A stretch of 64,000 nucleotides of DNA from an uncultured bacterium (GTDB lineage Bacteria; Planctomycetota; DG-23; CBDVDV01): NCBI GenBank assembly GCA_965372835.1, contig CBDVDV010000003.1, positions 71 through 64,070 of the forward strand, given 5' to 3'. Below are positions 16,932 to 51,272 of the stretch, piece by piece (position 1 is the stretch's first letter; every line of letters starts with the position of its first letter). The notes under the pieces were generated by a model. The model had not been told where the DNA came from. It was given only the letters and a program-made list of their open reading frames with translations, and did not search any database. The position numbers and the translations under genes are program-made.

Positions 16932-16960
16932 CCCTCGTCCAACCCTCAAGAGAAGGCAAC

Positions 16961-30104: not shown

Positions 30105-30896
30105 CTACCACAACACCTGAGGGTCAAAATCGTCATCGGTCAGGCCTACGTTGAGTTGCAGGTCTTTGAAGCTGTAGGCTTCCTGGAGCTGATGGCGGGC
30201 ATCGTAGGTGATGACCCGGATGGGGAGCAAGAGTTCGGTGTCGATGTTCCAGTAGCGGTAGCCACCATCCTCCAGGACGCGCATGATCTTGTAGGTTGGC
30301 CGGCCGAGGTAGCGCTCGGCGCCCAGATACCGAGCCCGTAAGTCACCCCGGTCGCGGGCCTGGCGGCACTGCACGTAGAGGCGCTTGGTGATGTGGCCGA
30401 TGCCGGCCTCGGTTATGGGGTGACGGTTTTCCTGCATGGCCTCGGCGCCGGTGGGCGAGAAGGTGAAGATGCTTTCGAAGCCGAAGAGGTCGCCGAGATA
30501 GGCGACCATCTTGCCGTCGAAACGACCTTCCTGGTACACCACCTCGCGACCCTTGTGAGGGGCTTCGAGCCAACGCATATGGATGGAGAGTGGTTCCTGG
30601 CGCACCTTGAGTTCAATGGTACGAGTGGGGAGCATCCGGCCACCCACGCGCTCGGTCTTCAGGAAGATGCAGGTTGAATCCTGGAGCTCTCCCCGGCGCT
30701 GCCAGGCCTGTTGCGCCAGTTCCCAGGGGTCGGGTAGCGGTGAGCCGGACGCGGACTCGGCCGGCTGCTCTCCTGCCAGCAGTGCCGCAAGCACCATCGC
30801 CAGCAGAACGACCGTCACCCGCCGACGCAGGACGGTCTTGCTGCGGGCCTCAGGGTCCGAGGATTTTGAAGATGCTGAAGATCTTGTCCTTGTCAA
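30105..30896 (-). CDS. Secreted hypothetical protein, paralog A (ENRHPITEAGIG motif)
   Basis: Signal peptide. Shares the ENRHPIT(E/K)AG(I/V)G block and overall similarity with the adjacent gene 30850..31731. Confidence 0.55.
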   Translation of the reverse strand: MTRTRSSASSKSSDPEARSKTVLRRRVTVVLLAMVLAALLAGEQPAESASGSPLPDPWELAQQAWQRRGELQDSTCIFLKTERVGGRMLPTRTIELKVRQEPLSIHMRWLEAPHKGREVVYQEGRFDGKMVAYLGDLFGFESIFTFSPTGAEAMQENRHPITEAGIGHITKRLYVQCRQARDRGDLRARYLGAERYLGRPTYKIMRVLEDGGYRYWNIDTELLLPIRVITYDARHQLQEAYSFKDLQLNVGLTDDDFDPQVLW

Positions 30897-31731
30897 ATTG
30901 CTTCTCTGTGACCTTGGGGTCGTTCAACTTAATGTTCCTGTACCTGACGTCTTCCAAGACGATGCCGTTCCAGTTGACGGTCTGAATTTTGACTGGGTAC
31001 CCCCACTCCAGGTCCAGTTCCAGAACGGCTTTGTGGCAGTAGTAGAAGTCCCGTTTGGGTAGTTTGCGGGCAATTCTGATGGTAGGTCGGCCGCCGACCA
31101 CTCCTCGGCCCAGATACTCGAAGGCCTCGGGTGCGTCACCGGCTTTCTCGGCCAGTTCGCACTGGTCCAGCAGGGAGTCCATCAGCCTGCCCACTCCTGC
31201 TTTGGTAATCGGGTGGCGGTTTTCCTTCATCACCACCGGGTCGCGCAGCTCGAAGGAGAAGGGGGGCAGGAGCCGCAGCAAGGGGTGCTTGACCCAGACC
31301 TTGTCCTCGTATTTGCCGTGGACGTAGAGGGCTTCGAGCCCTTCGATGGGCCCCTTTTCCCAGTACAGGTAGACGGCCCAGGGGCCGCCCTTCTCACGCA
31401 CGCGGATCCGAATCCTCTCCCACTTGCTCAGCCCGCCGGGCTTCTCCGATTTGTTCTGTCGGCGCTCCAGCGTGGCTGAAAAGTGCCTGACCTCCCGATG
31501 GTAGCGCGCTCGGGCCTCACGCAGGACATCGGGAAACAGGTTGGGTTGCTTCGCCAGGGCCTCCACGCGAGGGTTCGGCTCGGCCAGGCTGTTCGGGGGC
31601 GCTGCCATCGCGACCAGACCGAGGAGCAGGCCCACTCGCAGGGGTAGTGGGAGTCTTCGCCGGACCCACCGCAGACCCCCGGCGAACCTGCCGGCGCCGC
31701 CGGACACGCTTTCCAGGGCTCTCCATGACAT
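30850..31731 (-). CDS. Secreted hypothetical protein, paralog B (ENRHPITKAGVG motif)
   Basis: Signal peptide (LLLGLVAMAAP). Paralogous to 30105..30896. Confidence 0.55.
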   Translation of the reverse strand: MSWRALESVSGGAGRFAGGLRWVRRRLPLPLRVGLLLGLVAMAAPPNSLAEPNPRVEALAKQPNLFPDVLREARARYHREVRHFSATLERRQNKSEKPGGLSKWERIRIRVREKGGPWAVYLYWEKGPIEGLEALYVHGKYEDKVWVKHPLLRLLPPFSFELRDPVVMKENRHPITKAGVGRLMDSLLDQCELAEKAGDAPEAFEYLGRGVVGGRPTIRIARKLPKRDFYYCHKAVLELDLEWGYPVKIQTVNWNGIVLEDVRYRNIKLNDPKVTEKQFDKDKIFSIFKILGP

Positions 31732-31758: not shown

Positions 31759-32856
31759 TCAGTACTTGAAGCGTTTGCGGAAGAACTTGATCCTCTTGGC
31801 TACGTCCATGGCGTTGTGTTTGCAGAACTCGTGGCAGCAGAAGCAACTGATGCAGCGCCGCTTGTCAATGACCGGATAGGGGTCCAGGGTAACCGCCTCC
31901 ACGGGGCAGTGCCGGGCGCACATGCCGCAGCGGACGCATTTCTCTTTGATGAGTATGGGCTGGCTGACCATGACGTGGGTGAGCAGTCGCGCGGCCAGGG
32001 TTTCCACCCAGCCGCCGCTCAGACTGCTCGGGAGTTTGTAGTTGGGCAGTGGGGCCAGGTCACCGTTCAGGGAAAGGTCGTTGGGGTCGATGCTCCCCAG
32101 GGCCCGCGCCGCCGCCACCGACAGCAACGGCACCTTCTCGGGCGGAGCTCCCATCAGGGTGGCCACCACGGCGTCGACCTCCACGCCGTTGGTCCCGGCA
32201 ATGATGACCCCGGCCTCGTAGAGTTCATCGCTGGAAGGGCCCTTGCCCTCCATGGCCACGATGCCGTCCACGACGACGAAATCAGGAGGACGCAGTTGAT
32301 AAACGTCCACCACCAGTTCGCTGAAGTTCCAGGCCCCCAAGGCGCGCCGGTGCAGTTCCGACTTTTGCCCGCCCACCAGGTGACCGAATGCGTTCTTCAC
32401 GGCCGCGGTCAGCGTGGTCACCAGGTGGGTCTTCATTTTGGGAACGGTGATGAGCACATCGGCATCCATGACCTGGTGGCTGACCAGTACCTCGTCGACG
32501 AAACGGGACTTGATAGGCACGCTGCGGGCGCCCTCACTGAGGTTGACGTAGGTTCCGTTACAGACGGCGAGGATGCCGGCCCGTTGGGCGCACTCAAGGT
32601 TGGCCCCGTAGCCGCGCATGCCCGGGTTGTCTCCCACCATGACCTCGCGGGGACCGCGCCGGCGCACTTCCTTCAGCACCGCAGCCACCACGGCCGGGTG
32701 GGTGGTGATGTGCCGTTCGACTTCGAAGGGGCCTAAGATGTTGGGCTTGACCAGGACCGACTTCCCGGTCACATCCAGGGGGAGGTCCTCAAAGGCCTGG
32801 CGGACGACCTGCTCGACCGTCTCGTAGGAACTCCGGTAGATGGCGACCGTTCCCAT
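31759..32856 (-). CDS. DUF362 domain iron-sulfur protein (2x 4Fe-4S ferredoxin motifs)
   Basis: DUF362 hallmark VVVDGIVAMEGKGP. C-terminal CVRCGMCARHCP and CISCFCCHEFC ferredoxin-type clusters. Confidence 0.7.
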   Translation of the reverse strand: MGTVAIYRSSYETVEQVVRQAFEDLPLDVTGKSVLVKPNILGPFEVERHITTHPAVVAAVLKEVRRRGPREVMVGDNPGMRGYGANLECAQRAGILAVCNGTYVNLSEGARSVPIKSRFVDEVLVSHQVMDADVLITVPKMKTHLVTTLTAAVKNAFGHLVGGQKSELHRRALGAWNFSELVVDVYQLRPPDFVVVDGIVAMEGKGPSSDELYEAGVIIAGTNGVEVDAVVATLMGAPPEKVPLLSVAAARALGSIDPNDLSLNGDLAPLPNYKLPSSLSGGWVETLAARLLTHVMVSQPILIKEKCVRCGMCARHCPVEAVTLDPYPVIDKRRCISCFCCHEFCKHNAMDVAKRIKFFRKRFKY

Positions 32857-32860
32857 GTGC

Positions 32861-33916
32861 CTACCCAGTCGGTTTCAGAGCGAAGTAGCCGTGCCCCACG
32901 ATGTCAAAGACCCGCTCCATCGCAATTTCGTAGCCAGCCTCCCCGAACAGAGCGCGCCATCGGTGAGCCGGAAGAATGACCTGGTTGGTCAGTTGATGGA
33001 ACAGGTGATGCTCCACGAAGGCCGTGGGCCGTCGCCGCAGACGCTCCCGCGACTGCAGACAAAACTCGGCAACCACAAGCGCGCTGCGTGGAAACGCCTC
33101 CCTGAGTTCCTCCAAGAGTTTTCGAATGCGACTCTCGCCCTCAGACAGATACTCATGAAAAACGTCGATGGCAGTCAGTGCCTCGACGTCGCCCCAGCGC
33201 CGACGAAGGTCACCCACGGCGAACATATCGGCCTGGTGCACCTGTATTCTATGGGCGAAGGCGCTCTCCTGCAACCTCTTTTCCGCATGGGCAACGGCGG
33301 CAGCGTTGTTGTCAATGCCAATGCAGCTCACCGGCAGCTCCTGACAGAGGAGGAAAAGGAACTCCAGGTCGCCGCAGCCCAGGTCCAGCACCTGGCGCAC
33401 ACCTAACTTCCGGAGAAGGTCACACATGACCGGAAAGGGAAGTTGGCGGCCGAGTTGGCCGCTGCCCATGGCGATGTACTCACCCCGACGATGCAGGTCC
33501 ACGCCGACATGCCTTTTCCCGCGCAGCAGTTCCGGCAGGGCCACGAAAATGGGCTCGTAGCCGTAGGCCAGGTCGAAGACGCCCCGGGGCTCGGCCAGCA
33601 GAGCGGCCAGCCTCCCAGTGGGGTGACAAAGGCCGTCCTCGAAGCGGGTCAGTCCCAGGGCGTCCAAGTACTCACACAGGCTCTCCAGGATCGCTTCCTG
33701 GAGACCTCGCTCCCGGGCGTAAGGAAGGATGGCGAGTCTCCCCCGGCTGAGCAGTCGGTCGAGGAAGCCCTCCTGGGTCAGGGCCCAAAGGATGCGGGTG
33801 GTAACGTAGCCACGCAGGTAGGGGAGGGCCCGATCATGGCGGTACTTTCGGCGAACCAGAGCGCGGAGGCCAAACAGTCTGATGAGTTGCCAGAGTTGTT
33901 TCAGCGTCTCCTTCAC
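32861..33916 (-). CDS. Class I SAM-dependent methyltransferase
   Basis: VLDLGCGDLEF motif I. Within the biosynthetic cluster. Confidence 0.65.
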   Translation of the reverse strand: MKETLKQLWQLIRLFGLRALVRRKYRHDRALPYLRGYVTTRILWALTQEGFLDRLLSRGRLAILPYARERGLQEAILESLCEYLDALGLTRFEDGLCHPTGRLAALLAEPRGVFDLAYGYEPIFVALPELLRGKRHVGVDLHRRGEYIAMGSGQLGRQLPFPVMCDLLRKLGVRQVLDLGCGDLEFLFLLCQELPVSCIGIDNNAAAVAHAEKRLQESAFAHRIQVHQADMFAVGDLRRRWGDVEALTAIDVFHEYLSEGESRIRKLLEELREAFPRSALVVAEFCLQSRERLRRRPTAFVEHHLFHQLTNQVILPAHRWRALFGEAGYEIAMERVFDIVGHGYFALKPTG

Positions 33917-33953
33917 CGGCGAGCGGACCCCCTGGCGTCGAGCGTGGTTCCCA

Positions 33954-34862
33954 TCAGCGCTTGCGTCCCACGAGGATGGAGTAGATGCCCAGGGGTTCGG
34001 AGCGGACAGTGAAATTGGTGTAGCCGGCGTCGCTCAGCAGCCGGCGCAGGTGGTCGGGTTCTCGGTAGTTCACGTGAAGTCCCAGCACGGTCCGTAAGAA
34101 TCGGTCCGAGCCGTGGGCCGGCTGGATGCTGTTGGCCACGAAGGTGCCTCCGGAGGGGGCAGCCTTGTACATGGCCTTGAGCAGGTCGGCCACCTGCTCG
34201 TCGGTGAAGTACTCCAAGATGCCCACGGCCACGACGATGTCGGGCTGGACGTCGATGAGCTTATCGATTTCCAGGACGTTGCCCTGGATGAAGGTGATAC
34301 GGTCGGCCAGGCCCAACCGTTGGGCCAGCTCCAGTCCGAAGCTCACGGCCCCGCCGGAAAGGTCCACCATATAAGCGTGGCTGTCGGAATTCGGCGCAAG
34401 CCGCATCGCCTCCATAATGTTGTGACCAGTGCCCGCGGCCACCCCCACGATGTGGATCGGCCCCTGGTGGCTGAAGACGAGTTCGCGCAGTACCCCGCTC
34501 ACCGAGAAAGCCCTGCCAACGGGGGAACCGAGAACTGGGTGTTTGAAGATGAGTTCGCTCAGCATCCGGGTCACCAGGCGCTTGCGGTTGCGCAGAGCCA
34601 TGGGAAAGGAACCGTATTTCTGCACCAACTTGTCGATTGCCCCTTGGGCCTCCTGGTCTTCGTAACTGAGACGCATGCATTCCCAACTCCCCGGCTCCCT
34701 CACGCAGGCGTCCACCAGGGGGCTGCGGCCGCGCAGCAGCGCCCGCAGCAACCAGCGGGGAAGGATGTAGTTGATCATGGGGTTGATGAACCAGTCGCGC
34801 ATCACCCGGTTCCCGGTGGTCAACGCTTCGAACTGGATGCCGTCGATCTCAACGTACTTCAT
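33954..34862 (-). CDS. Class I SAM-dependent methyltransferase
   Basis: Rossmann MTase-like glycine-rich motif (IVGVAAGTGHN) and an acidic residue after beta-2. Adjacent to the second MTase. Confidence 0.55.
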   Translation of the reverse strand: MKYVEIDGIQFEALTTGNRVMRDWFINPMINYILPRWLLRALLRGRSPLVDACVREPGSWECMRLSYEDQEAQGAIDKLVQKYGSFPMALRNRKRLVTRMLSELIFKHPVLGSPVGRAFSVSGVLRELVFSHQGPIHIVGVAAGTGHNIMEAMRLAPNSDSHAYMVDLSGGAVSFGLELAQRLGLADRITFIQGNVLEIDKLIDVQPDIVVAVGILEYFTDEQVADLLKAMYKAAPSGGTFVANSIQPAHGSDRFLRTVLGLHVNYREPDHLRRLLSDAGYTNFTVRSEPLGIYSILVGRKR

Positions 34863-36571
34863 GGCCTCAGACCCCCTTCTGCGGGTACGCTCTCGGCCAC
34901 ACAGCCAAGCTCTTGCACGGCCTCGAAGCGCCCGTGGTAGTCTACGTCGGGAACCAGAAAGACGTGCTTCTGCTGTTCCGGATTCCGCAGACGTGTTCGC
35001 TCCTCACTCAAGGCCGCGGCGAACTGCTCGGGACGAACGATCCGTACTCGGGGCGGTCCCAGACGACCGCTTTCTCGCTTCTGGGCGTATTCGATGTTGC
35101 TCAGACACAATTCCCGCTCCAGTCTCCTCAGGAGCGTTGACCACCGGTTGGGATCGATAGAGCCGTCGGGAGCCAGCAGGAGGTAGTACGGCGGGTCGTC
35201 CCAGACGGGCGTCAGTGTCAGTTGCTCCACAGACGGGATGCCGAGACCATCCTGTGCCCGTTGCAGGGAGTAAACAACCTGCCTTTCGGTCAACTTCTCG
35301 CCGGTCAGGGAAGAAATGTGCTCCCCTTTGTTGAGGAACTCGATGACAGGCGTCTGCTTGTATCTGTCGACCACCTCGACGTGATCCATGATGTTGTACC
35401 GGTAGCACCCGCCCGACGTGGTCAGCACCACGTAGTACCGCTGTCCCAACTCCACCTCGTGGGCCAGAAGCGTGTGTGGATGCTCGCTGTCGACCTCATC
35501 TTCCGGGATGAACTCGAAGAACTGGTGCATCAGGTCCAGTACGCCTGCACTCCCGTCGTCGGAGAGTGGAATGCTCATTCTCCCTTCCGAGGCAAGCAGT
35601 CCTATGTCGCGTGTGGGTACCGGTCCGAACGCCTCGGCCAGACGGGGCAAGTACAGTGACACTGTGCCACCTTTCCAGACGGCGAGGATCTTGAGCCGGG
35701 GCCAGTAGTCCCGGGGCAGCAACCGGCCCTCTCGGTCGAGGAGTTTGGCCAGTCGGCGAGCCCGCCGCGGGCTGGGCCGAAGTCGTCGGCGCAAACGGTC
35801 CCGCACCGAATCCGGAATAGAGCACCGTTCGGAGACCCCTCCTTGCTCGATGTCGCGGATGAGTTCCCGGGCTCGTCGATTGCCGATCTCGCTCAGGCGC
35901 AGCAGCGTCGAAGGGTTGGGTGTGCAGCAGAAGGTGATGTTGCGGGTCAAGCACAACCGGAGGATCAGGTAGTATTTGCTCTCGGCGTCGTGGACGCGGT
36001 TGACGACCGTGGAGGCGGGGTAGAACCAGCGCAGCATCCGTGGCTGCATTTCGGCCATAAGTCCACTGACGGCGCCACATGGGGTTCCCGTCGGAGTCGT
36101 CTGCTCGTCGTGCCGGCTGACGATGGTGAGCAGGTCGCCCTCATATGCCAAACGGTGGTCGCGGTAGACACCCCAGCCCCATATGTGCCAACCAGTGCGG
36201 TATTCCTTGAGGAAACTCTCAGTGATGGGGATGTACTTGGGCTCGTCGGTGGTCCCGCTGGTCAGGGCAAACATCCGCACCTGCTCGCCGGGGCCGAACA
36301 GGGCACCGAACTCACCCCGCCGGACACGATCGATGTAAGGACGAAGGTAGGAGTAGTCGCAGACCGGCACCCGTTGGCGGAAGTTTTCGACCGAGTCGAT
36401 GTGGGTGAAGCCGTGCCGACGGCCGAAATCGGAGTCGGCGTTGCGGGCCACCTTGGCCAGCAGCACCTGTTCCTGCACCCGCCGGATATCCGAGGCCGCC
36501 TGGTCAAAGCGACTGAAGCACTTGCGGGCCCGCAGGCGCACCAAGGCCAAGACCAGGTCCCTCCAAAACAC
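34859..36571 (-). CDS. GH3 (auxin-responsive GH3) family acyl-adenylate-forming enzyme / amido synthetase-like
   Basis: FALTSGTTDEPKYIPITESF matches the GH3-family phosphate-binding SSGTT motif region. About 570 aa. Confidence 0.65.
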   Translation of the reverse strand: MFWRDLVLALVRLRARKCFSRFDQAASDIRRVQEQVLLAKVARNADSDFGRRHGFTHIDSVENFRQRVPVCDYSYLRPYIDRVRRGEFGALFGPGEQVRMFALTSGTTDEPKYIPITESFLKEYRTGWHIWGWGVYRDHRLAYEGDLLTIVSRHDEQTTPTGTPCGAVSGLMAEMQPRMLRWFYPASTVVNRVHDAESKYYLILRLCLTRNITFCCTPNPSTLLRLSEIGNRRARELIRDIEQGGVSERCSIPDSVRDRLRRRLRPSPRRARRLAKLLDREGRLLPRDYWPRLKILAVWKGGTVSLYLPRLAEAFGPVPTRDIGLLASEGRMSIPLSDDGSAGVLDLMHQFFEFIPEDEVDSEHPHTLLAHEVELGQRYYVVLTTSGGCYRYNIMDHVEVVDRYKQTPVIEFLNKGEHISSLTGEKLTERQVVYSLQRAQDGLGIPSVEQLTLTPVWDDPPYYLLLAPDGSIDPNRWSTLLRRLERELCLSNIEYAQKRESGRLGPPRVRIVRPEQFAAALSEERTRLRNPEQQKHVFLVPDVDYHGRFEAVQELGCVAESVPAEGGLRP

Positions 36572-36584
36572 AGCGTCGGCCTCC

Positions 36585-37562
36585 TCAGTTCTGATTGCTG
36601 GACGAGTGCACGGCCACAGGGGTCGGGACGGGCAGACAGGCGGCGACGAACTCGAGGACCCGTTGTTGGTAGCGTTGCCCAGCGACGGTCACGGCCTGGT
36701 TGTGCCGCGCCCCCGGAACTATCCAAAGCGCCTTGGGTGGGGCCGCCCGTTCGTGCAACCAGCGGGCCTGATCTGCGCCGACGTAACTGTCGGCCTCACC
36801 GTGAATCATCAGCAGAGGACACCGGCGCTCACGCACCGCTTTCTCCACGGGCAAGAACCTCACCCCCAACCGTAGTTCCGAGACCAGCAGCGTCAACTTC
36901 TCGTACATCCGGAACACCCACTCGGGCAGGTGGTTGTAGACGAGCCGGACGTCTGCAAAGATGGACACCCATCGGCGCATGTACTCCAACAGTGTCCGCC
37001 GGGTGCTGAACAGGCCGTCAGTAACCAGGGCCAGCACCTCCGGGTCCCGGCTGGCCAATGCCGTGGCCGCGGCTCCGCCGCGGGAAATGCCGAAGAGCAC
37101 CAGTTGCTCACCGGCAAGGTCGCTGCGGGCGCGCACGTACGCCACCGCCGCTTCCAGATCCGCCAACTCCCGCTCCGTCGCCCACTGTCGGGGGACGTAA
37201 TCGTCCGTGTTCTTGCTATCACCGTGACCACGGAAGTCAAAGGCCAGAACCGCGTAACCTGCCTCCAGGAGCCAGTGGGCATAGGGCCCCGCCGAGCGAC
37301 GGTCGGCTCCGAACTCAGGGCAGAAGACCACCACCGGCGGACGCTCACCTCTGGCCGGGCGCGCCAGGGTGCCCGCCAGCTCCACACCGTCCCCCGTGCG
37401 CAGTATCAGTTCCTCGCCTTCGAAGCGCTGTTCTTCGTCGGGGGTGCTGCGCACCACGACTCCCAGGAAGAGGTTGACGACGATGCGCAGGTAGCGCTGC
37501 CAGACCCAGGCCACGAAGCCCACGCCCGATATGGTGACCAGCAGGGCGATCTTCCAGAACAC
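36585..37562 (-). CDS. Membrane-anchored alpha/beta-hydrolase (possible thioesterase/acyl-hydrolase)
   Basis: N-terminal TM helix. GISRGG nucleophile elbow and a later catalytic His region. Confidence 0.6.
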   Translation of the reverse strand: MFWKIALLVTISGVGFVAWVWQRYLRIVVNLFLGVVVRSTPDEEQRFEGEELILRTGDGVELAGTLARPARGERPPVVVFCPEFGADRRSAGPYAHWLLEAGYAVLAFDFRGHGDSKNTDDYVPRQWATERELADLEAAVAYVRARSDLAGEQLVLFGISRGGAAATALASRDPEVLALVTDGLFSTRRTLLEYMRRWVSIFADVRLVYNHLPEWVFRMYEKLTLLVSELRLGVRFLPVEKAVRERRCPLLMIHGEADSYVGADQARWLHERAAPPKALWIVPGARHNQAVTVAGQRYQQRVLEFVAACLPVPTPVAVHSSSNQN

Positions 37563-37567
37563 CCTCG

Positions 37568-38872
37568 TTACTCCTCGAACCGACGCAGGATCAGGCTGAT
37601 ATTCTGTCCTCCGAAACCGAAGGAATTGCTCATGGCCGTTCGTACCGTCCCTCGACGAGCTTGGTTGGGCACGTAGTCGAGGTCACAGTTGGGGTCGGGT
37701 GTCTCGTGGTTGATCGTCGGGGGGATGATGCCGTCACGGATGGCCAGCAAGCAGATGATGGCTTCGACGGCGCCGGCGGCCGCGATCAAGTGACCCATCA
37801 TCGACTTGGTGGAACTGAGCGGAATGCGGTGGGCCAGGTCGCCGAAGACGGCCTTGACCGCTTTGGTCTCCACGCGGTCGTTGACCTCGGTAGAGGTCCC
37901 GTGAGCATTGATGTAGTCGATCTGGTCGGGAGTAAGTCCGGCGTCGGCCAGCGCCGCCCGCATCGCCGCCTCGGCTCCCCGCCCTTCCGGGTGACTGTCG
38001 GTGATCCGGAAGGCGTCGGCCGTGCTCCCGTAGCCGAGGAGTTCACCATAGATGTGGGCGCCGCGTCGGCGGGCGTGTTCCAGTTCTTCAAGGACAACCA
38101 TTCCGGAGCCCTCTCCCAGAATGAAACCCTCACGGTCCAGGTCGAAAGGCCGACTGGCCTGCTTCGGATTGTCATTGTAACTTGTGGCCAGGGCGGTGAG
38201 CAAGTTGAAACCGGCCATGCCCAGGGGGTGAATCATGGAGTGGCATCCTCCGGTGACCATGACCTCGACGTCACCTCGACGGATGACCTCACCGGCTTCA
38301 CCCAGGGCCTGGCTGCTGGCGGCGCAGGCGGTGAGGCAGTTGGAGTTGTAGCCCTGGGCGCCGACGAACTCGGCCACATAGCCAGCGGGCATGTTAGGCT
38401 CTTGCTCCAGCTCGGCCACGGCATTCAGTTGACGGAGGCCGTTGGCCAGGAAGTCGGCCACGTCCACGTGGTCGCCCTTCCAGTTGTTGACCACCAGGGC
38501 GGCGAACTTGAGGAAGTCCATGGCCCCCTCCCCGGAGCCCAGGTAGACGCCCGTTCGACGAGGGTTGGGCGAAGGACGGGGCAGACCGCTGTCTCGATAG
38601 GCTTCGGCCGCAGCGGTTAGGGCAAAGCATTCGTTGCGGCCCACGTAGTCGCGGCTGGCCAGTTCCGGCACGTGGTCGGCCAGGTCGTATGTGGGAACCT
38701 GGGCGGCGATGGCGGTGGGGTAGGTGCTTGCATCGAACAGGCGAATTCGAGAGATGGCGCTCCGCCCCAGTCGCAGCCCCTCCCAGGTCGATTCGACGTC
38801 GAGACCCAAGGGTGTCACCATGCCCATGCCAGTGATTACCACCCGCCTTCGTTGCCGACCGTCTCCCATCAC
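37568..38872 (-). CDS. Beta-ketoacyl-ACP synthase II (FabF-like KS)
   Basis: Catalytic Cys (LTACAASSQ), HGTST and KSMMGHL His motifs. Confidence 0.85.
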   Translation of the reverse strand: MMGDGRQRRRVVITGMGMVTPLGLDVESTWEGLRLGRSAISRIRLFDASTYPTAIAAQVPTYDLADHVPELASRDYVGRNECFALTAAAEAYRDSGLPRPSPNPRRTGVYLGSGEGAMDFLKFAALVVNNWKGDHVDVADFLANGLRQLNAVAELEQEPNMPAGYVAEFVGAQGYNSNCLTACAASSQALGEAGEVIRRGDVEVMVTGGCHSMIHPLGMAGFNLLTALATSYNDNPKQASRPFDLDREGFILGEGSGMVVLEELEHARRRGAHIYGELLGYGSTADAFRITDSHPEGRGAEAAMRAALADAGLTPDQIDYINAHGTSTEVNDRVETKAVKAVFGDLAHRIPLSSTKSMMGHLIAAAGAVEAIICLLAIRDGIIPPTINHETPDPNCDLDYVPNQARRGTVRTAMSNSFGFGGQNISLILRRFEE

Positions 38873-38900
38873 CCCCCCCGCTCCTGTCTTGTGGGGACCT

Positions 38901-40268
38901 TCATTTCGGAGGCCCCCCGACCAGCAAAGCCGCGCTCTGGCCGCCGAAACTGAAAGTGTTAACCATGGCCAGGGTCACCTCCGCCTGGGTCGCTCCGCCG
39001 GTCACCAGGTTCACGGCACACTCGGGGTCCGGCTCACGACAGTGAAGGGTCGCCGGTACCACCCCCTCAGTGAGAGCGAGACAGCAAGCAGCCACCTCCA
39101 GACCTCCAGCCGCTGCGCTCACGTGCCCGGTCATGGGCTGCAGCGCGGTGACCAGCGGCCGGGCGTTCGTTGACCCAAAGACCTTGCGGATGGCCCGGGC
39201 CTCCGCCGCGTCCGTCTCTGGGAGCCCCAGTCCGTGGGCGTAAACCACGTCCACGTCCTCCGGTCCGACCCCGGCATCTTCCAGGGCGGAACACATGGCC
39301 AGTTCGCCTCCTCCCCGGCTGTGTTGACGGATCTCCCCGGGTTCCCAGGCCGAGCCGAAGCCCACGATCTCTCCCAGAACCCGGGCTCCGCGCTGGTGAG
39401 CGTGCGCCAGTTCCTCCAGTACCAGACACACCGCCCCTTCCCCGACCACGAAGCCGTCCCGTCGGCGATCGAAGGGTGAGGGCGTCTCGCTCTGGCGGTG
39501 GCTGAGCCAGCCCAGCAGTTCGTAACGCAGGAGGTTCAGGGGAGTGATCTTGCCGTCGGCCCCTCCGGCCAGGCAGACGTCGGCGCTCCCGCGGGTGATG
39601 ATGCGGGCGGCCTCGCCGATGGCCAGGGTCGCGGAGCAGTCACCGGCGGTGACGCTGTTGTTGGGGCCCCGGCAATCGTAGAAAATGGAGATGTGGCAGG
39701 CGTGCATGTTGGGCAGGTACTTCAGGAGCCAGAGGGGGAAGAGGTTGGCCATGCCCTCGCGGCCGAACCGTTGGAGGTCAAACTGGTTCTCCTCGTCCAG
39801 CGCGCAGGTGAAGGCCGCTCCCAGTTCATCGATGTCACTGGTTATGAGCCCGGCGCCGAAACTGACGCCGGTGCGGTCCGGGTCCAGTTGGCCCTCCAGA
39901 GCAGCGTCTTCCAGAGCCAGTTGGGCGGAGCCGGTGGCAAGTTGGATTTCCCGACACATCACCTTGACGGCCTTGCGCTGGGCGACGAGTTTCCGGGGGT
40001 CAAACCCCTTGACCTCGGCCACCAGCCGCGCGGGAAACTCACCGAGGTCGAGACTGCTGGGAGGGGCGATGCCCGAGCGTCCTTGGCGGAGGCCCTGCCA
40101 GTAGGCGTCGCGGCCCAGGCCTGCGGCCGAGGCCACTCCGATACCCGTAATGACCACGCGGCGAGTGTTCACGGGTGCTCCAAATCCTGTAAGTAGAGTT
40201 GTGGGGCAAGAGCGGAGGCGGTCACGACGGTGCCGAATCGGCGTCCGCTTCCGGGGCTTCCACCTCAA
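38901..40268 (-). CDS. Beta-ketoacyl synthase, second KS (partner/CLF-like but retains the Cys-His-His triad)
   Basis: VITGIGV N-terminus, Cys (TAGDCSAT), HGLGL and MTGHVSAAAG motifs. A true start near VNTRRVVITG would remove the overlap with the downstream dehydratase. Confidence 0.8.
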   Translation of the reverse strand: MRWKPRKRTPIRHRRDRLRSCPTTLLTGFGAPVNTRRVVITGIGVASAAGLGRDAYWQGLRQGRSGIAPPSSLDLGEFPARLVAEVKGFDPRKLVAQRKAVKVMCREIQLATGSAQLALEDAALEGQLDPDRTGVSFGAGLITSDIDELGAAFTCALDEENQFDLQRFGREGMANLFPLWLLKYLPNMHACHISIFYDCRGPNNSVTAGDCSATLAIGEAARIITRGSADVCLAGGADGKITPLNLLRYELLGWLSHRQSETPSPFDRRRDGFVVGEGAVCLVLEELAHAHQRGARVLGEIVGFGSAWEPGEIRQHSRGGGELAMCSALEDAGVGPEDVDVVYAHGLGLPETDAAEARAIRKVFGSTNARPLVTALQPMTGHVSAAAGGLEVAACCLALTEGVVPATLHCREPDPECAVNLVTGGATQAEVTLAMVNTFSFGGQSAALLVGGPPK

Positions 40269-40728
40269 TGGCCTCGCTAATTCGCAGCAACTGCATCAGG
40301 TCTTCGGTGAAGACGAAGTTCCCTTCGGGCGCCGACACCAGCTTTGACCGGTCCAGGTTGACAAACATGATAGTGGCCGTAGCCACCTCCCGACCATCGA
40401 CCGTGCAGCGACAGCCGAGACGGGAGCCCTCTTCCCGGACCCCCAGCAGTTCGGCCTCGACGAGCATCTGGTCGCCCGGAAGCACCGGATCACCAAACGT
40501 GGCCCGCTCGATTTTGGCCAGGATGACCTCGTGCTTCCAATCGTCGGTGTAGCCGGCCAGCACCCCAGCCGTCTGGGCCATGGACTCAATCACCAGTGCG
40601 GCAGGCATCCTCGGGTAGTACGGACTGAAGTCGTGCAGATGTTCCTCCGCCAGGGTCACGTTTTTCACCGCCTTGGCGAAGGCGCCCTTCTTCAGGGACA
40701 GGAACCGATCAACCCACATCCAGCGCAA
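40222..40728 (-). CDS. FabZ/FabA-like hot-dog fold 3-hydroxyacyl-ACP dehydratase
   Basis: HDFSPYYPRMPAALVIESMAQTAG matches the FabZ active-site His region. Confidence 0.75.
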   Translation of the reverse strand: MRWMWVDRFLSLKKGAFAKAVKNVTLAEEHLHDFSPYYPRMPAALVIESMAQTAGVLAGYTDDWKHEVILAKIERATFGDPVLPGDQMLVEAELLGVREEGSRLGCRCTVDGREVATATIMFVNLDRSKLVSAPEGNFVFTEDLMQLLRISEAIEVEAPEADADSAPS

Positions 40729-40767
40729 TGGCCCGCTCCTCCTCGTGCCCCATCCTCACAACGGGGC

Positions 40768-41163
40768 TCAAGCCTCCTGGGCGTTCAGCCGCTCGGACAC
40801 GTAGTTGACGATCATGCCCACGGTGAAGAGTTGACCCAGTTCGGAGACCAGGGGGTTGGCTTCGAACTGGCTCAGGTCCGCATGGGGCATCTTCTCCCGC
40901 AGTACACCCAGCCCCTCATCGGTGAGTTTGCCGTCTTTGACGTACTCGGGGCTGGAGAGCAGGTTCTCCGGGAACAGGTCGCCACGGGGGATCTTGATGC
41001 CGAACGCCTTTTCCAGACGGAAGACGATATCCAGGAAGTCGATGGATTCCGCGCCCAGGTCCTCGGTCAGCGAGGCCGTCAGTGTCACCTCCTCCTCTTC
41101 CACACCCAGGGCGTCGACCATGCTCTCAGTGACCCTGTTGAGGATTTCGTCGTGATCAGGCAT
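40768..41163 (-). CDS. Acyl carrier protein (extended, about 130 aa)
   Basis: DLGAESIDFLDIVFRLEKAFGI, a phosphopantetheine attachment Ser in a DSL-like context. Confidence 0.75.
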   Translation of the reverse strand: MPDHDEILNRVTESMVDALGVEEEEVTLTASLTEDLGAESIDFLDIVFRLEKAFGIKIPRGDLFPENLLSSPEYVKDGKLTDEGLGVLREKMPHADLSQFEANPLVSELGQLFTVGMIVNYVSERLNAQEA

Positions 41164-41217
41164 CCAGTCCGCCTCCTTCAGTCACCTCTTGCTTATCTCC
41201 TTGTGGTCGAGCCGGGC

Positions 41218-41973
<756 letters not shown>

Positions 41974-42001
41974 GTTCTCCCCGCTCCTCTCCCCTTGCTC
42001 T

Positions 42002-43306
42002 TCACCCGCGCAGCGGATGCATGCCCGCCCGCAGGCTCCGTCGGTGCAGCAGGTTGTACTTGAACTGAGCCAGCAGCCGGATGCCCGAGGTCCGGGGTGG
42101 CAGCAGTCGCCGCAGAATCGACGGCAGAGAATAAAACTTCCGGTACAGCCGCCAGAAGCCCTCTTCCAACTGCTCGGGCGTCATCTTGGTCGGCTGGATG
42201 ATCGCTTCATCGCCGTTGTATCGCGACCAGTCCGTATGGGACAGGCGGCCGGCCTCCTGCAATCGCTTGAACAGCACCGTACCCGGTGCCGGCGTAAGGA
42301 TAAAGAAATATGCCAGGGGGATGCGTAAGTCCACCAAAAACCGGTAGGTCTCCTCGAAGACCTCAGGCCCGTCACCGTCCAGCCCCATGATCATGCTCAC
42401 CATCGGCGAGATGCCAACCTGGGCCATCTTGGTGAGCAGTTCGTGGTATTCCTCGACCTGGTTGCAGACCTTGTGCACCGACTCCAGGCTCTCGGGGTTG
42501 ATGCTCTCCACACCTACGAACATCGAGAAGCAGCCCGCATCGTGGGCTGCTTGCAGCAGTTCCTCATCGCGGGCCACGGTAATGTTGCACTGACACCCCC
42601 AGAGCAAATCCAGGGGTTTGAGTGCCTGGAAGAGCTTCAGGGCGTAAGTGCGCTGGGCGGCGATGTTGTCGTCAATGAAGAAGATGTACTTGGAGCCGGT
42701 GGCCTTGATGTCCCGGATGACGTGCTCCACCGGCCGGTGGCGGTAACTGCGGCCGAAGAACTCTTGCACCGAACAAAAGTCACAGCTCATCGGGCACCCT
42801 CGGGTGGTCTGCACCGGCCACACTCTCATGGAGTACTTGTACGTTCGCAGCAGCTCGTAGCGTGGCGTCGGAAGTCTGCTCAGGTCGGCCAGGTGGTCAC
42901 TCATGTAGATGGGCTTCAGTCGGCCCCCCCGGAAATCCTCGACTACCTCAGCCCAGATCTCGTCGGCTTCGCCGACGACCACGGCGTCAGCGTGCTCGGC
43001 CGCTTCCTCGGGCAGGAGGGAGGCGTGGAAGCCGCCGATGACTACCTTCTTTCCTCTGGCCCGGAAGCGGTCGGCGATCTGGTAGGCCCGGGGGCCCTGC
43101 GGGGTCATGGCCGAGATGGCCACCAGATCACAGAGGTCCTCCTTGGCAGCGTCCTGGTAGAAGTCGTTACAGATCTCCACGTCGAAATCACTGGGGGTCA
43201 GCGCCGCCAGCAGGGGCAGGGCCAGACCCGGGTAGGGGAGGCGCCCGGGCCGAAAGACACGGCCGTCGGGGAGCAAACTTGACGCCTGTATCAGCAGCAG
43301 CTTCAT
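42002..43306 (-). CDS. B12-binding domain radical SAM enzyme (class B; putative C-methyltransferase or rearrangement enzyme)
   Basis: N-terminal B12-binding Rossmann-like region. TTRGCPMSCDFCSV radical-SAM cluster. Confidence 0.8.
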   Translation of the reverse strand: MKLLLIQASSLLPDGRVFRPGRLPYPGLALPLLAALTPSDFDVEICNDFYQDAAKEDLCDLVAISAMTPQGPRAYQIADRFRARGKKVVIGGFHASLLPEEAAEHADAVVVGEADEIWAEVVEDFRGGRLKPIYMSDHLADLSRLPTPRYELLRTYKYSMRVWPVQTTRGCPMSCDFCSVQEFFGRSYRHRPVEHVIRDIKATGSKYIFFIDDNIAAQRTYALKLFQALKPLDLLWGCQCNITVARDEELLQAAHDAGCFSMFVGVESINPESLESVHKVCNQVEEYHELLTKMAQVGISPMVSMIMGLDGDGPEVFEETYRFLVDLRIPLAYFFILTPAPGTVLFKRLQEAGRLSHTDWSRYNGDEAIIQPTKMTPEQLEEGFWRLYRKFYSLPSILRRLLPPRTSGIRLLAQFKYNLLHRRSLRAGMHPLRG

Positions 43307-43336
43307 CGAATCAGTTCCGCTTCGGCGCCGGCCCGA

Positions 43337-43894
43337 TCATGTGTTTACAGTTGTGTCCCGGTCCGCCAGCGCTCGGCCACCCAACGCATGAAACCGTTGC
43401 TTGGCTGACTCGATGAGCCGCTCGTCAGTGCGCTGGTAACGGGGGTCGCGGTCGCACAGGTTGTAGTATCGCAACCGGAATCGACCGCTGACCGCGGCCT
43501 GCGTCGCCACCGTGCCCTGACCGGAGAACAGGGCTTGGTTCTCTTCCCACTTGAGGGATCGGACCACGACCTCCAGGGTGTTGCCCGGGGTGACAAAGCG
43601 ACCGTACTTGACGTTGCGCACCTCGGCCAGGCACACCAGTGAGTAGCGAAAGTTGGTCTTGAGCCGCACCAGCCAACACCCCGCTTCGACCAGGGCCTCC
43701 AACATCATCACCCCGGGCATCACCGGGTATCCGGGAAAGTGGTCCCGCAGGTACTCCTCGGCCAATGACAGGTTCTTGGTGGCCCGAATGACCCGGCCGC
43801 CGTCCAGCTCCACAATCCGGTCGAGCAGAACGAAATCCATGATGCTTATGAGCCTTTGTCTCGGGGCCAGCAGGAGCGGCCTGCGCTCCGACAC
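43337..43894 (-). CDS. FabZ/FabA-like hot-dog dehydratase (second copy)
   Basis: HFPGYPVMPGVMMLEALVEAG FabZ signature. Confidence 0.75.
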   Translation of the reverse strand: MSERRPLLLAPRQRLISIMDFVLLDRIVELDGGRVIRATKNLSLAEEYLRDHFPGYPVMPGVMMLEALVEAGCWLVRLKTNFRYSLVCLAEVRNVKYGRFVTPGNTLEVVVRSLKWEENQALFSGQGTVATQAAVSGRFRLRYYNLCDRDPRYQRTDERLIESAKQRFHALGGRALADRDTTVNT

Positions 43895-43955
43895 CTCATC
43901 CGCTGAGCAGCAACTTGCCCAGAATCTTAATACCGTTTTCCTGTCCCGCTGTCAA

Positions 43956-45083
43956 TCACGAAAAGCCCCTTTGCGCCCACTGCCGCAGCATCGCCACACC
44001 CGCCGAGAGCGTCTCCTCGCTGGCGGCGAAAGAGAGGCGGAAGTGGCGGTGACGCTCGGAAAAGACACTTCCCGGGATAATCAGGAGGTTGTGCTCGATG
44101 GCTGCCGTGACAAACTCCTCGTCCGTCCCCCGGGGCACGCGGGGAAAGAGGTAGAACGCACCTTCGGGCCGAGTCACCTGGTAGCAATCGGCCAGGCCCT
44201 CGTAGATGAGGTCGCGCTTGGCCCGATAGTCGCTGCGAATCTGCTCCACGGGCAGTTTTAGGGCCGCCAGGGCCGCCTCCTGCATGGGGGAGGGCGCACA
44301 CACGAAACTGAACTGCTGCAGTTTGGTCATCTCCTGGATAATGACCTGAGGGCCGGCGGCGTACCCCACCCGCCACCCGGTCATGCCGTAACTCTTGGAA
44401 AAACCGTCCAGCAGGAGCAGTTGGTCGGTCCACTGAGCGGGGCTGTGGTGGGGGCCGTCGTAGACGAAGTCGTGGTAGATCTCGTCGCTGATGAGAAAGA
44501 GCCCGTGTTCGCGAGCGAACTCCGCCGCTGTACGGAGTTCCTCTGCCGAATAGACCGCCCCGGTAGGGTTGGCCGGGCTGTTGAGTATGAGGAGTTTGCT
44601 CCGCGCTCCCAGAGCCGCCTCCAAGGCCTCCCGCCGCAGGCGGAAGTCGGGATAGGTATCCACAAAACTGGGCACACCTCCGAAGAGATTGACCAACTGC
44701 TTGTAACTGACGAAGTAGGGGTCGGGAATGAGCACCTCGTCGCCTGGGTCCACCAGAACCAGCAGCGCCAGCATCAGCCCTCCGCTGACCCCGGCGGTCA
44801 CCATCACGTCTTCGGGTTCCCAGCCCGTCCGTGCTGTGAGTTGTTGGCGGATGCTCCGACGGAGTTCGGGGATGCCCTGGGTGACGGTGTAACGGTTGTG
44901 ACCTTTGCGAATGGCGGCGATTGCCGCCTCCTTGACCCGTTCGGGCACGTCGAAGTCAGGCTGGCCGATGCTCAGGTTGACCGGTCGCTCCAACTTCTGT
45001 GCCAGGTCGAAAACGCGACGAATGCCCGAGATCTCGATACCAGCTAACCGCCGAGCAATGAACTTCTCAGGAGCAAGGGACAC
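43956..45083 (-). CDS. Class I/II pyridoxal-phosphate aminotransferase (aspartate/aromatic aminotransferase-like)
   Basis: SFSKSYGMTGWRVGY PLP-lysine motif. About 375 aa. Confidence 0.8.
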   Translation of the reverse strand: MSLAPEKFIARRLAGIEISGIRRVFDLAQKLERPVNLSIGQPDFDVPERVKEAAIAAIRKGHNRYTVTQGIPELRRSIRQQLTARTGWEPEDVMVTAGVSGGLMLALLVLVDPGDEVLIPDPYFVSYKQLVNLFGGVPSFVDTYPDFRLRREALEAALGARSKLLILNSPANPTGAVYSAEELRTAAEFAREHGLFLISDEIYHDFVYDGPHHSPAQWTDQLLLLDGFSKSYGMTGWRVGYAAGPQVIIQEMTKLQQFSFVCAPSPMQEAALAALKLPVEQIRSDYRAKRDLIYEGLADCYQVTRPEGAFYLFPRVPRGTDEEFVTAAIEHNLLIIPGSVFSERHRHFRLSFAASEETLSAGVAMLRQWAQRGFS

Positions 45084-45112: not shown

Positions 45113-45385
45113 TCAAGACGCGGGGCTTTCGTCGCCGGGTTCGCCGGCCGCCGTCTCAGCACCCTCAGGGGTACCCTCGAGGGCTGCTTCGGGCTTGGCC
45201 TCTTTGGTCTTCTTCTTGCCGCGGACTTTTCGGATGCGCAGCGAGACCTTGGGCAGCCCGAAAATGGACTCGCCCGGCTGCCACCGGCCTTCCTGCTCGA
45301 GCATCAGCAGGCGCTCCTCCCGGGAAAGGACATTTCGCCGGCGAAGCAGCTGCCCTTTGGTCTTCAGGCTCTTGTCAACAGCCAC
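45113..45385 (-). CDS. Small basic hypothetical protein
   Basis: 90 aa, Lys/Arg-rich (RIRKVRGKKKTKE). Sits between the cluster and the SPOR gene. No confident family. Confidence 0.35.
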   Translation of the reverse strand: MAVDKSLKTKGQLLRRRNVLSREERLLMLEQEGRWQPGESIFGLPKVSLRIRKVRGKKKTKEAKPEAALEGTPEGAETAAGEPGDESPAS

Positions 45386-46321: not shown

Positions 46322-46467
46322 CCACCCCGGGCGGACACGCATGTCCGCTTGCCCCCCGTACTTGTAGGCGCCTTGACATCGCCGCCCGCGTGGGGCTATG
46401 GTTTACGTTGGTCGGGCGTTGGCGCCCCGAGGCTGCAGGCCGATGATTGGGAAAGGAGCAGGCGGCG

Positions 46468-51196: not shown

Positions 51197-51272
51197 GCGG
51201 GTGTAGCTCAGCTGGTAGAGCACAGCGTTGCCAACGCTGCTGTCGTGGGTTCGAGTCCCATCACCCGCTCCA
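51197..51272 (+). tRNA. tRNA-Gly (anticodon GCC)
   Basis: Cloverleaf read by hand. Acceptor stem GCGGGTG/CACCCGC, D-arm GCTC-AGCTGGTA-GAGC, anticodon stem-loop CAGCG-TTGCCAA-CGCTG, T-arm GTGGG-TTCGAGT-CCCAT, 3' CCA encoded. Confidence 0.85.

Follow-up and report, generated by a model that had tools for sequence, protein, structure and literature searches.

We analyzed a window of 64,000 nucleotides from the genome of an uncultured planctomycete (positions 71 to 64,070 of contig CBDVDV010000003.1, assembly GCA_965372835.1). Its minus strand carries, between about positions 26752 and 45083, a tightly packed biosynthetic cluster of some 18 genes arranged like an operon. This cluster combines parts of known kinds, namely a GH3-family enzyme paired with an α/β-hydrolase as in the OlsH/OlsI pathway of ornithine-lipid synthesis, an assembly line with a FabF-derived ketosynthase (KS) and a partner of chain-length-factor (CLF) type, and a radical S-adenosylmethionine (SAM) enzyme of class B-type architecture. 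We tentatively propose that a modified acyl chain is built on a dedicated acyl carrier protein (ACP) and then linked by the GH3 enzyme, through an amide bond, to an amino acid that is possibly β-methylated, the product being an envelope lipoamino acid or aminolipid. The cluster is widespread in uncultured Planctomycetota, and no publication describing this gene set was found in the literature that we searched.

Gene content of the cluster

According to the listing of open reading frames (ORFs), the minus strand holds 13 co-directional, back-to-back ORFs between positions 31759 and 45083, with gaps ranging from -4 to about 60 nt, and the co-directional and syntenic block continues with five more genes to approximately position 26752. 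An initial annotation of the window had rightly described the co-directional arrangement. It had nevertheless counted 14 genes instead of 13, the nearest extra ORF (a small basic protein of 90 residues, at 45113-45385) being outside the span, and its boundaries were too narrow since the functional block is larger. Pfam and NCBIfam profile scans, including curated cutoffs, gave the domain identities below. They agree with the DUF362 protein, two SAM methyltransferases, GH3 enzyme, hydrolase, ACP, FabG and aminotransferase of that annotation, and the two motifs that it quoted, CPMSCDFC and FALTSGTTDEPKYIP, are both present in the sequence. The genes are, in the order of transcription:

43956..45083, minus: AT, class I pyridoxal phosphate (PLP) aminotransferase, similar to aspartate (AspAT) and aromatic aminotransferases (Aminotran_1_2, 230 bits)
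43337..43840, minus: DH1, FabZ-type dehydratase with His and Glu intact (ORF to 43894; likely ATG at 43840)
42002..43306, minus: radical SAM enzyme of class B architecture, its N-terminal domain being of B12-binding type
41218..41973, minus: KR, FabG-type 3-oxoacyl-ACP reductase (adh_short_C2, 237 bits)
40768..41163, minus: ACP, dedicated, 131 residues (PP-binding, 43 bits)
40222..40728, minus: DH2, FabZ-fold protein with Phe for the catalytic His, Glu kept (FabA 42 bits, FabZ 86 bits)
38901..40172, minus: KS2, FabF-derived, CLF-like KS homologue (ORF extends to 40268; N- and C-terminal ketoacyl-synt domains)
37568..38872, minus: KS1, FabF-like condensing ketosynthase with a Cys-His-His triad (TIGR03150, 493.5 bits)
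36585..37562, minus: ABH, membrane-anchored α/β-hydrolase (Hydrolase_4/Abhydrolase families; N-terminal hydrophobic segments)
34859..36571, minus: GH3-family acyl-acid adenylating enzyme / amido synthetase (GH3 N, M and C domains)
33954..34862, minus: MT_A, class I SAM methyltransferase (Methyltransf_20, PF12147, 57 bits; overlaps the GH3 stop by 4 nt)
32861..33916, minus: MT_B, methyltransferase of the α-keto-acid Cβ-methyltransferase type, similar to MppJ and 2-ketoarginine methyltransferase (present in 13 loci)
31759..32856, minus: DUF362 protein ending in a 2x[4Fe-4S] ferredoxin domain (DUF362, 163 bits, and Fer4; CxxCxxCxxxCP motifs)
30850..31731, minus: DUF1571 protein a, exported, putative lipid carrier of LolA/RseB fold (DUF1571, 88 bits; signal-peptide-like N-terminus)
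30105..30818, minus: DUF1571 protein b, exported, putative lipid carrier of LolA/RseB/LprG fold (ORF extends to 30896)
28800..30002, minus: MLE enzyme, enolase superfamily, MLE subgroup (MR_MLE_C, 151 bits)
27963..28787, minus: ABH2, soluble, lysophospholipase-like α/β-hydrolase (Hydrolase_4, 157 bits)
26752..27984, minus: ABH3, lipoprotein α/β-hydrolase and last co-directional gene (Abhydrolase_1, 68 bits; lipobox-like LLFSGC)

The GH3 enzyme belongs to the superfamily of GH3 acyl-acid amido synthetases, its three domains (PF03321, PF23571 and PF23572) scoring 228, 72.6 and 41.5 bits where the gathering threshold is 23.6. The nucleotide-binding motifs (TSGTT..K, SE and R..D) are kept in 52 of 52 orthologues, and the best matches in the PDB are JAR1 and other plant GH3 amido synthetases, over the full length. 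To our knowledge, all characterised GH3 enzymes form amides with amino acids. The reading of this protein as an acyl-acid amido synthetase is backed by the planctomycete enzyme OlsH (PMC12493201). A dozen relatives share 64-99% identity with it and many more about 45-50%. A neighbour-joining tree of 170 sequences contains several deep GH3 clades in Planctomycetota, and does not separate inheritance together with ABH from recruitment; stand-alone GH3 genes occur in loci L003, L005 and L088, and a deep clustered one in L089. The stand-alone paralogue of L088 (10001-11584, P0043), 47% identical to that of the window, directly follows genes for LpxK, a lipid A late acyltransferase, an HldE-like protein, a SIS protein and a heptosyltransferase. 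Because this paralogue adjoins lipid A genes, some planctomycete GH3 enzymes may act on lipopolysaccharide (LPS) or lipid A.

ABH has, as initially described, N-terminal hydrophobic segments that could anchor it in the membrane. Its triad Ser160/Asp258/His287 is kept in all 73 orthologues, and its gene adjoins GH3 in 41 of the 63 loci with enough downstream sequence and KS1 in 29 of 60. We regard it as a candidate thioesterase or O-acyltransferase that would off-load the chain. Some genomes contain two copies: loci L050 and L055, from one metagenome-assembled genome (MAG, CAZYDC01), are two ABH-GH3 pairs, and loci L061 and L072, from one Fuerstiella MAG, are a lone ABH and an ABH beside a DH-KR-ACP-DH-KS1 set. 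Two copies per genome indicate paralogous systems in one organism.

The carrier-protein line was examined by an alignment of the two ketosynthases, KS1 and KS2, with orthologues taken from 87 related loci. A Cys-His-His triad had been attributed to both ketosynthases. This holds for KS1, in which it is found in 38 of 38 orthologues, but not for KS2, in which it occurs in none of 31. The catalytic state of KS2 is Asp-His-His; in the alignment, the Cys of its motif GDCSAT is displaced by +1, and the Cys column is Asp or Glu in 26 of the 31 orthologues and never the Gln of classical CLFs. The likely start of KS2 is a GTG at 40172 preceded by GGAG. The two proteins are 35% identical. KS1 falls 0.25 bits under the equivalog cutoff of the fabF model (493.75 bits) and KS2 scores 320 bits against the same cutoff of 494. 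In the PDB, KS2 matches FabF structures with 253 bits, compared with 164-176 bits for KS and CLF proteins of type II polyketide synthases (PKS), of which the actinorhodin (act) CLF gives 164, and KS1 is also nearer to FabF than to any of these. KS2 has the KS fold without a nucleophilic Cys and adjoins a functional KS1, as a CLF-type protein does, whereas common descent with actinorhodin-type CLFs is not supported, given the lack of Gln and the better score of FabF. Because no orthologue has the triad and FabF structures are closer than PKS ones, KS2 is a partner of CLF-like type that derives from FabF, rather than another complete ketosynthase.

A similar asymmetry is seen in the dehydratases. 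Both are FabZ-like hot-dog proteins, as had been stated, but DH2 lacks the catalytic His. DH1 (64 bits with Pfam FabA and, short of the cutoff, 89 bits with NCBIfam FabZ) keeps His and Glu in 32 of 32 orthologues, and the start chosen for it agrees with its 167-residue orthologue in L001. In DH2, the His is kept in 31 of 35 orthologues and is replaced by Phe or Tyr solely in the window, L001, L002 and L004, with Phe in the window and Tyr in its closest relatives; E. coli FabZ served as the reference in this alignment. DH2 is probably a partner subunit of DH1. The ACP had been noted as long, and indeed its 131 residues include an insertion of about 44 residues relative to a canonical ACP (positions 64-107, between helices III and IV), at which the alignment to PDB entry 6lvt splits (63/108). 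All 35 orthologues have at least 114 residues, and all 35 have the phosphopantetheine Ser. Finally, KR is slightly below the cutoff of the general FabG model TIGR01830 (294 vs 297.75 bits) and passes that of the FabG subfamily NF009466 (260.7 vs 222).

The radical SAM enzyme combines a B12-binding domain (PF02310, 44.2 bits, cutoff 32.1) with a radical SAM core (PF04055, 72 bits) bearing the CxxxCxxC motif as CPMSCDFC, so that the class B architecture ascribed to it is borne out; its use of cobalamin is predicted from this architecture. Its fold matches those of MgmA, CysS, TsrM and TokK, and the closest structure is AprD4. The enzyme scores lower with the ladderane model TIGR04072 (83.5 bits) than with BchE (103) and HpnJ (97). 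Methylation, dehydration and C-C bond formation are all possible reactions, C-methylation being our default guess.

Several genes could deal with amino or keto acids. The best PDB matches of AT are the Pyrococcus aromatic aminotransferase and the Thermus AspAT (about 240 bits), and its sequence displays the SKS motif of the PLP lysine and a C-terminal FRLSF with the arginine of the α-carboxylate arginine motif. AT is the first gene of the conserved block and a probable member of the cluster. The sole PDB homologues of MT_B are MppJ (45.8 bits, residues 42-338), the 2-ketoarginine methyltransferase and one uncharacterised methyltransferase, and it matches the model ketoArg_3Met (TIGR04543) over its full length with 92.7 bits against a cutoff of 425, and ApyS with 85 bits, also below cutoff; we thus see in its sequence a family-level resemblance only to MppJ and MrsA. 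In the known pathways, MppJ and an aminotransferase lead to β-methyl-Phe, and MrsA/MrsB to 3-methylarginine. The likeness to them consists in the full-length match of MT_B and in a class I aminotransferase in the same cluster, whereas the similarity is weak, AT and MT_B stand at opposite ends of the cluster and their co-occurrence is inconstant. Their pairing favours the supply of a β-methyl amino or keto acid, which does not imply that this compound primes the chain. Besides, MT_A, whose PDB matches are weak, is found solely in those fetched clusters that also have the radical SAM enzyme and KR (the window, L001, L004, L006, L008 and the incomplete locus L002). The DUF362 protein follows MT_B in 10 loci, some of them without a radical SAM enzyme, and is a candidate electron-transfer partner.

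The five genes beyond position 31759 could serve in the handling of a lipid and of an acylated amino acid. The DUF1571 proteins match structurally the unclosed β-barrel of the LolA/LolB/RseB/LprG fold and have an export signal; protein a is syntenic in L001, L004 and L089. The top PDB matches of the MLE enzyme are the dipeptide epimerase 3jva (118 bits), 2p88, an Ala-Glu epimerase and N-acyl or N-succinyl amino-acid racemases (NAAAR/NSAR), so that it is closest to dipeptide epimerases and to these racemases; it is syntenic in L001, L004, L006, L008 and L089. ABH2, which gives 18.5 bits with the OlsI model, is syntenic in L001, L004, L008 and L089, and ABH3, which gives 45 bits with class III PhaC (below cutoff), in L001, L004 and L008.

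Distribution, modularity and flanking genes

Related loci (L numbers) were collected, and a scan with the ABH alignment, limited to one genome per species, gave 80 of them, nearly all from Planctomycetota or Phycisphaerae MAGs. Their contents were established by tblastn and by comparison of ORFs, and families of antisense shadow ORFs in loci of high G+C were discarded from the comparative annotation. A check of synteny in relatives had been suggested for the cluster, and gene order does recur: the whole cluster is syntenic at GH3 identities of 88% (L001), 65% (L004) and 48% (L089), and the same order is found in relatives with 56-58% identity in the radical SAM enzyme. This recurrence is more than chance. 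The widespread core order is [AT]-DH1-ACP-DH2-KS2-KS1-ABH-GH3. Contents were counted in 41 loci, namely those in which ABH is flanked by 5 kb or more of upstream and 2.5 kb or more of downstream sequence; the fatty-acid synthesis (FAS)-like set and GH3 are distributed there as follows:

GH3 with the FAS-like set: 22 of 41 loci
ABH-GH3 only, no FAS-like genes within 5 kb: 7 of 41 loci
FAS-like set without GH3: 5 of 41 loci
ABH alone: 7 of 41 loci

The GH3 gene thus accompanies the FAS-like set in 22 of the 27 fully flanked loci that have this set. Twenty-two loci have GH3 and the FAS-like set without the radical SAM enzyme. The latter occurs with KR, MT_A and GH3 in the clade of the window, and with GH3 but without KR or MT_A in L089. 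L006 and L008 keep the radical SAM cluster, with KR, MT_A and the MLE enzyme, without GH3, and four loci (L063, L066, L069 and L072) contain DH-KR-ACP-DH-KS1-ABH, again without GH3. Cluster-linked relatives of the radical SAM enzyme are found down to about 56% identity; unlinked ones, at about 43-47%, belong to Isosphaeraceae, NC10 and Deltaproteobacteria, as in Singulisphaera sp. GP187 (L007). Because the radical SAM enzyme occurs in variants with and without GH3, the cluster is modular. Its variable parts are GH3 and three additions of a subclade, namely the radical SAM enzyme, FabG and MT_A. The combination of GH3 with a B12-type radical SAM enzyme, described as unusual in the initial annotation, is conserved in four clusters (the window, L001, L004 and L089), but it is not obligatory.

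The G+C content is uniform across the window, the cluster being the same as its surroundings, and that of the host genome is about 64%. Recent horizontal transfer was rejected on the basis of this uniformity. An Rfam scan of the window found a single tRNA and no cobalamin or SAM riboswitch. Scans of the window for promoters and terminators gave neither above chance, and the one plausible location is that of a divergent promoter-like pair at 46.15-46.40 kb. The genes surrounding the cluster are:

51305-52723, plus: trigger factor (ordinary neighbour)
51197-51269, plus: tRNA gene (ordinary neighbour)
46447..48327, plus: RACo/RamA-like reductive activator of corrinoid enzymes, divergent, possible accessory (RACo_C_ter 275, middle 196, linker 62 and Fer2 43 bits)
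45416-46087, minus: SPOR-domain membrane protein, preceding the small basic protein in the window
45113-45385, minus: small basic protein, 90 residues, immediately upstream of AT in 17 loci
25337..26728, plus: GT2, lipid-type glycosyltransferase similar to HpnB and CruG, possible accessory (Glycos_transf_2 and GT21)
24627..25541, plus: DUF1638 protein, convergent (DUF1638, 122 bits)
23503-24720, plus: LarC nickel-insertion gene (478 bits; overlaps the DUF1638 start)
15582-18376, minus: TldD/PmbA metallopeptidase pair (ordinary neighbours)

The small basic protein and the SPOR protein are probably syntenic bystanders. On the other side, LarC, DUF1638 and GT2 are plus-strand genes converging on the block. 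HpnB and CruG are glycosyltransferases of hopanoid and carotenoid lipids, respectively; GT2 remains below the cutoffs of both models (190 vs 379 and 165 vs 600 bits), and its convergent position is kept in L001, L004 and L089, from which one could assume that the product might be glycosylated. The DUF1638 gene is cluster-linked in nine loci. It is convergent in L001, L004 and L089, and it lies between GH3 and MT_B in L035, L049, L054, L058, L059 and L068, a subgroup in which genes in the order GH3-DUF1638-MT_B-DUF362 stand about 3 kb downstream from ABH and no radical SAM gene is present within 10 kb. A metagenome scan with DUF1638 returned one unrelated locus (L090) only. The DUF1638 and RACo families have been tied genetically to B12 reactivation (fitness genetics, PMC5764234; also PMC12478193). 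The linked DUF1638 gene and the adjacent RACo gene thus bring circumstantial support to a corrinoid chemistry of the radical SAM enzyme. Furthermore, the DUF362 protein of the cluster belongs to the same Pfam clan as the N-terminal domain of LarA (nickel-pincer cofactor enzymes), and a gene of cytidylyltransferase fold near LarC (21731-22378, minus) is presumably NadD-like. LarC, the DUF362 clan and this neighbour may hint at a link with the nickel-pincer cofactor, or be a coincidence.

Proposed pathway and rival explanations

In the pathway that we infer, KS1 and KS2, the active DH1 and the His-less DH2, each pair presumably as a heterodimer, and FabG would extend an acyl chain on the insertion-bearing ACP, while malonyl transfer and any enoyl reduction would be borrowed from primary fatty-acid synthesis. 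The radical SAM enzyme would modify the ACP-bound chain, by C-methylation by default, or alternatively by radical dehydration or C-C bond formation. The DUF362-ferredoxin protein could supply the electrons, and DUF1638, with RACo, could keep the corrinoid active. ABH would then remove the chain from the ACP by hydrolysis or O-acyl transfer, and the GH3 enzyme, in the manner of OlsH, would adenylate a free fatty or acyl acid and join it to an amino acid through an amide bond. Where both are present, AT and MT_B would supply this amino acid in β-methylated form, MT_A would add a further methyl group, and the MLE enzyme could epimerise the N-acyl amino acid. Last, the exported DUF1571 proteins of LolA fold and the lipoprotein hydrolase would handle the lipid outside the cytoplasm. 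We favour an acyl-amino-acid product because of the GH3 precedent, the possible amino-acid supply by MT_B and AT, and the resemblance of the MLE enzyme to N-acyl amino-acid racemases.

The precedent is the pathway of Singulisphaera acidiphila, in which the GH3 enzyme OlsH condenses a free fatty acid with ornithine at the expense of ATP, giving N-acyl ornithine, and the operon-linked α/β-hydrolase OlsI then O-acylates this compound to give ornithine lipid, the methyltransferase OlsG being encoded between them (PMC12493201). Both systems comprise a planctomycete GH3 gene that adjoins an α/β-hydrolase gene, with methyltransferase genes near and the GH3 nucleotide motifs kept. The N-acyl amino-acid lipid was demonstrated for OlsHI, whereas the same class of product is predicted for the cluster. 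They differ in that the pair studied here is surrounded by the genes of an ACP/KS/DH line, which also has a radical SAM enzyme, a methyltransferase of keto-acid type, exported carriers and a racemase-like enzyme. We consider the parallel with OlsHI as a functional analogy and not as membership. N-acyl tyrosines of the stieleriacine type are made by NasY enzymes, in a paper where GH3 is unmentioned (PMC12479983), and their synthesis was rejected as an assignment for the cluster on this published description, with no protein comparison.

Several observations weigh against our proposal. Orthology with OlsH and OlsI was rejected: the GH3 enzyme reaches 103.1 bits with the OlsH model NF052613, whose cutoff is 620, with residues 6-226 alone well aligned, and ABH has no match to the OlsI model NF052614 (cutoff 385 bits) at E<=1. 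L006 and L008 keep an otherwise complete radical SAM cluster in which GH3 is missing. AT is present in 19 of the 48 related loci with enough upstream sequence, and since it travels with the conserved small basic protein, it could be a bystander too. As for the corrinoid, DUF1638 is present in loci that have no radical SAM enzyme, which weakens the link, RACo is adjacent in the window only and in none of the other fetched loci, and AprD4, which stands structurally nearest to the radical SAM enzyme, is a dehydratase that is not known to use cobalamin. Other such points come from the comparison with type II PKS-like systems.

In aryl-polyene clusters, the adenylating enzyme ApeH loads the starter, and these clusters contain a LolA-like protein, a GT2 glycosyltransferase and a methyltransferase, a set recalling the LolA-fold proteins, GT2 and methyltransferases found here. 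One would then wonder whether the GH3 enzyme could be a starter loader in a type II PKS-like pathway, like ApeH or like AmcH of cispentacin and coronafacic acid synthesis. AT, with or without MT_B, would make a 2-oxo acid, β-methylated or not, that GH3 would transfer to the ACP; KS1 and KS2 would extend it and possibly cyclise it, the dehydratases, KR and the radical SAM enzyme would process it, and ABH would hydrolyse the thioester, giving a polyene, a carbocyclic acid or a non-proteinogenic amino acid, and not an amide. The gene content speaks for this possibility, the main rival of our proposal, which we nonetheless hold to be rather unlikely. The reducing type II PKS-like systems for aryl polyenes (Ape), ishigamide (Iga) and cispentacin or coronafacic acid (Amc/Cfa) likewise possess a KS with a non-condensing partner, hot-dog proteins, KR, a hydrolase and an adenylating enzyme beside a dedicated ACP, and take FabD and FabI from primary metabolism; a dehydratase pair with KR and ACP but no enoyl reductase corresponds to a polyene-type grammar. 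Moreover, the core maps class for class onto that of cispentacin (AT-AmcC, DH-AmcE, ACP-AmcB, KS1-AmcF, KS2-AmcG, ABH-AmcD and GH3-AmcH), in which the starter is indeed loaded by the adenylating enzyme (PMC10698177). However, the aminotransferase AmcC belongs to class III, and AmcH is an ACP ligase of the adenylate-forming type (PMC10698177). The Amc models do find matches here, but below threshold (AmcF, 222.7/325 bits for KS1 and 171/325 for KS2; AmcE, 40.5/140 and 27/140; AmcB, 29.7/80), and every one of them scores below the corresponding FabF, FabZ or ACP model, so that Amc membership was rejected. AmcH itself presumably does not belong to the GH3 family, and no acylation of a carrier protein by a GH3 enzyme is known to us. 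The cluster differs further from these systems by a KS pair nearer to FabF, by the Asp or Glu of KS2 in place of the Gln of CLFs, by its GH3 adenylating enzyme and by the added B12-type radical SAM enzyme. The seven loci with ABH-GH3 and no FAS-like genes within 5 kb, and an MLE enzyme suited to an N-acyl amino-acid substrate, fit poorly with a starter loader as well. The characterised GH3 members known to us make amides (PMC12493201).

Another hypothesis lies in the synthesis of an unusual membrane fatty acid, methyl-branched, cyclised or modified in another way, that would follow a ladderane-like logic and enter membrane or LPS lipids, GH3 and the associated genes being accessories of the lineage; we consider it unlikely. 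In the candidate ladderane cluster of anammox bacteria, amxACP and amxFabZ stand with two homologues of FabF and a B12 radical SAM enzyme (PMC10139942, PMC13459092). This cluster, kuste3603-3608, comes from the same phylum and has the same gene grammar, its function being also unproven (PMC2649909, PMC10139942). In addition, antiSMASH 'ladderane' calls have been reported in non-anammox phyla without a known product (PMC9902471). The GH3-less loci, namely L006 and L008 with their complete radical SAM cluster and the four loci with DH-KR-ACP-DH-KS1-ABH, would be expected on this hypothesis, and the stand-alone GH3 paralogue beside lipid A genes is compatible with it. The likeness to ladderane and aryl-polyene clusters that had been initially perceived therefore stands for the gene grammar, but not for the radical SAM enzyme, whose membership of the ladderane family was rejected (83.5 bits against a cutoff of 360). 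PDB entries 7qv0 and 8ayb-8ayi, which we take to be amxFabZ, give 38-49 bits with DH1 and DH2, against 55-67 bits for the best ordinary FabZ. No phytoene-desaturase-like gene or desaturase domain was found among the cluster genes scanned, and the ORFs scanned, which make up only part of the window, included no recognisable anammox genes. The presence of GH3 with the FAS-like set in 22 of 27 loci also argues against a mere accessory, and a membrane fatty acid leaves no role for the racemase-like and keto-acid-methyltransferase-like genes.

It is finally very improbable that these are genes of housekeeping fatty-acid synthesis, or genes juxtaposed by chance, without a dedicated pathway. KS1 does lie at the FabF threshold, KR is near FabG and the G+C content is that of the surroundings. 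Yet KS2 and DH2 are degenerate, the ACP insertion is conserved, no FabD, FabH, FabI or Acc-type gene was recognised among the scanned genes of the block, and the genes are tightly spaced or overlapping and keep their order down to 48% GH3 identity. Housekeeping synthesis was rejected on the grounds of the degenerate KS2 and DH2 and of the unusual ACP, in agreement with the initial annotation. Altogether, the observations of the latter are partly confirmed, being largely right with errors of detail in gene count, KS2 triad and extent, and its interpretation is partly supported.

Significance for Planctomycetota and for GH3 enzymes

The GH3 amide proposal has a bolder extension, which we put forward as doubtful. 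The radical SAM enzyme could act on ACP-tethered chains and install methyl branches or C-C bonds anaerobically during their growth. The cluster would thus be a non-anammox counterpart of the unproven ladderane system and, at the same time, the source of a new class of envelope lipids in Planctomycetota and Phycisphaerae, in which GH3 joins the chain to a β-methylated and possibly D-configured amino acid. Many of the host MAGs come from anoxic sediments, groundwater and stratified waters, judging from the titles of their records. The subclade with the radical SAM enzyme represents a second, independent case in which a B12-domain radical SAM enzyme stands among ACP, FabF and FabZ homologues, as in the unsolved ladderane problem.

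It was not until 2025 that the OlsH/OlsI pathway of ornithine lipids, which has two genes, connected bacterial GH3 enzymes with lipid synthesis (PMC12493201). Here, a GH3/hydrolase pair is found inside a dedicated carrier-protein line. Because dozens of genomes of uncultured Planctomycetota and Phycisphaerae contain this line, the acyl-amino-acid chemistry of bacterial GH3 enzymes may reach far beyond ornithine lipids. Should the product prove to be a lipoamino acid that is methylated and distinctive, it could be used as a biomarker of these uncultured lineages.

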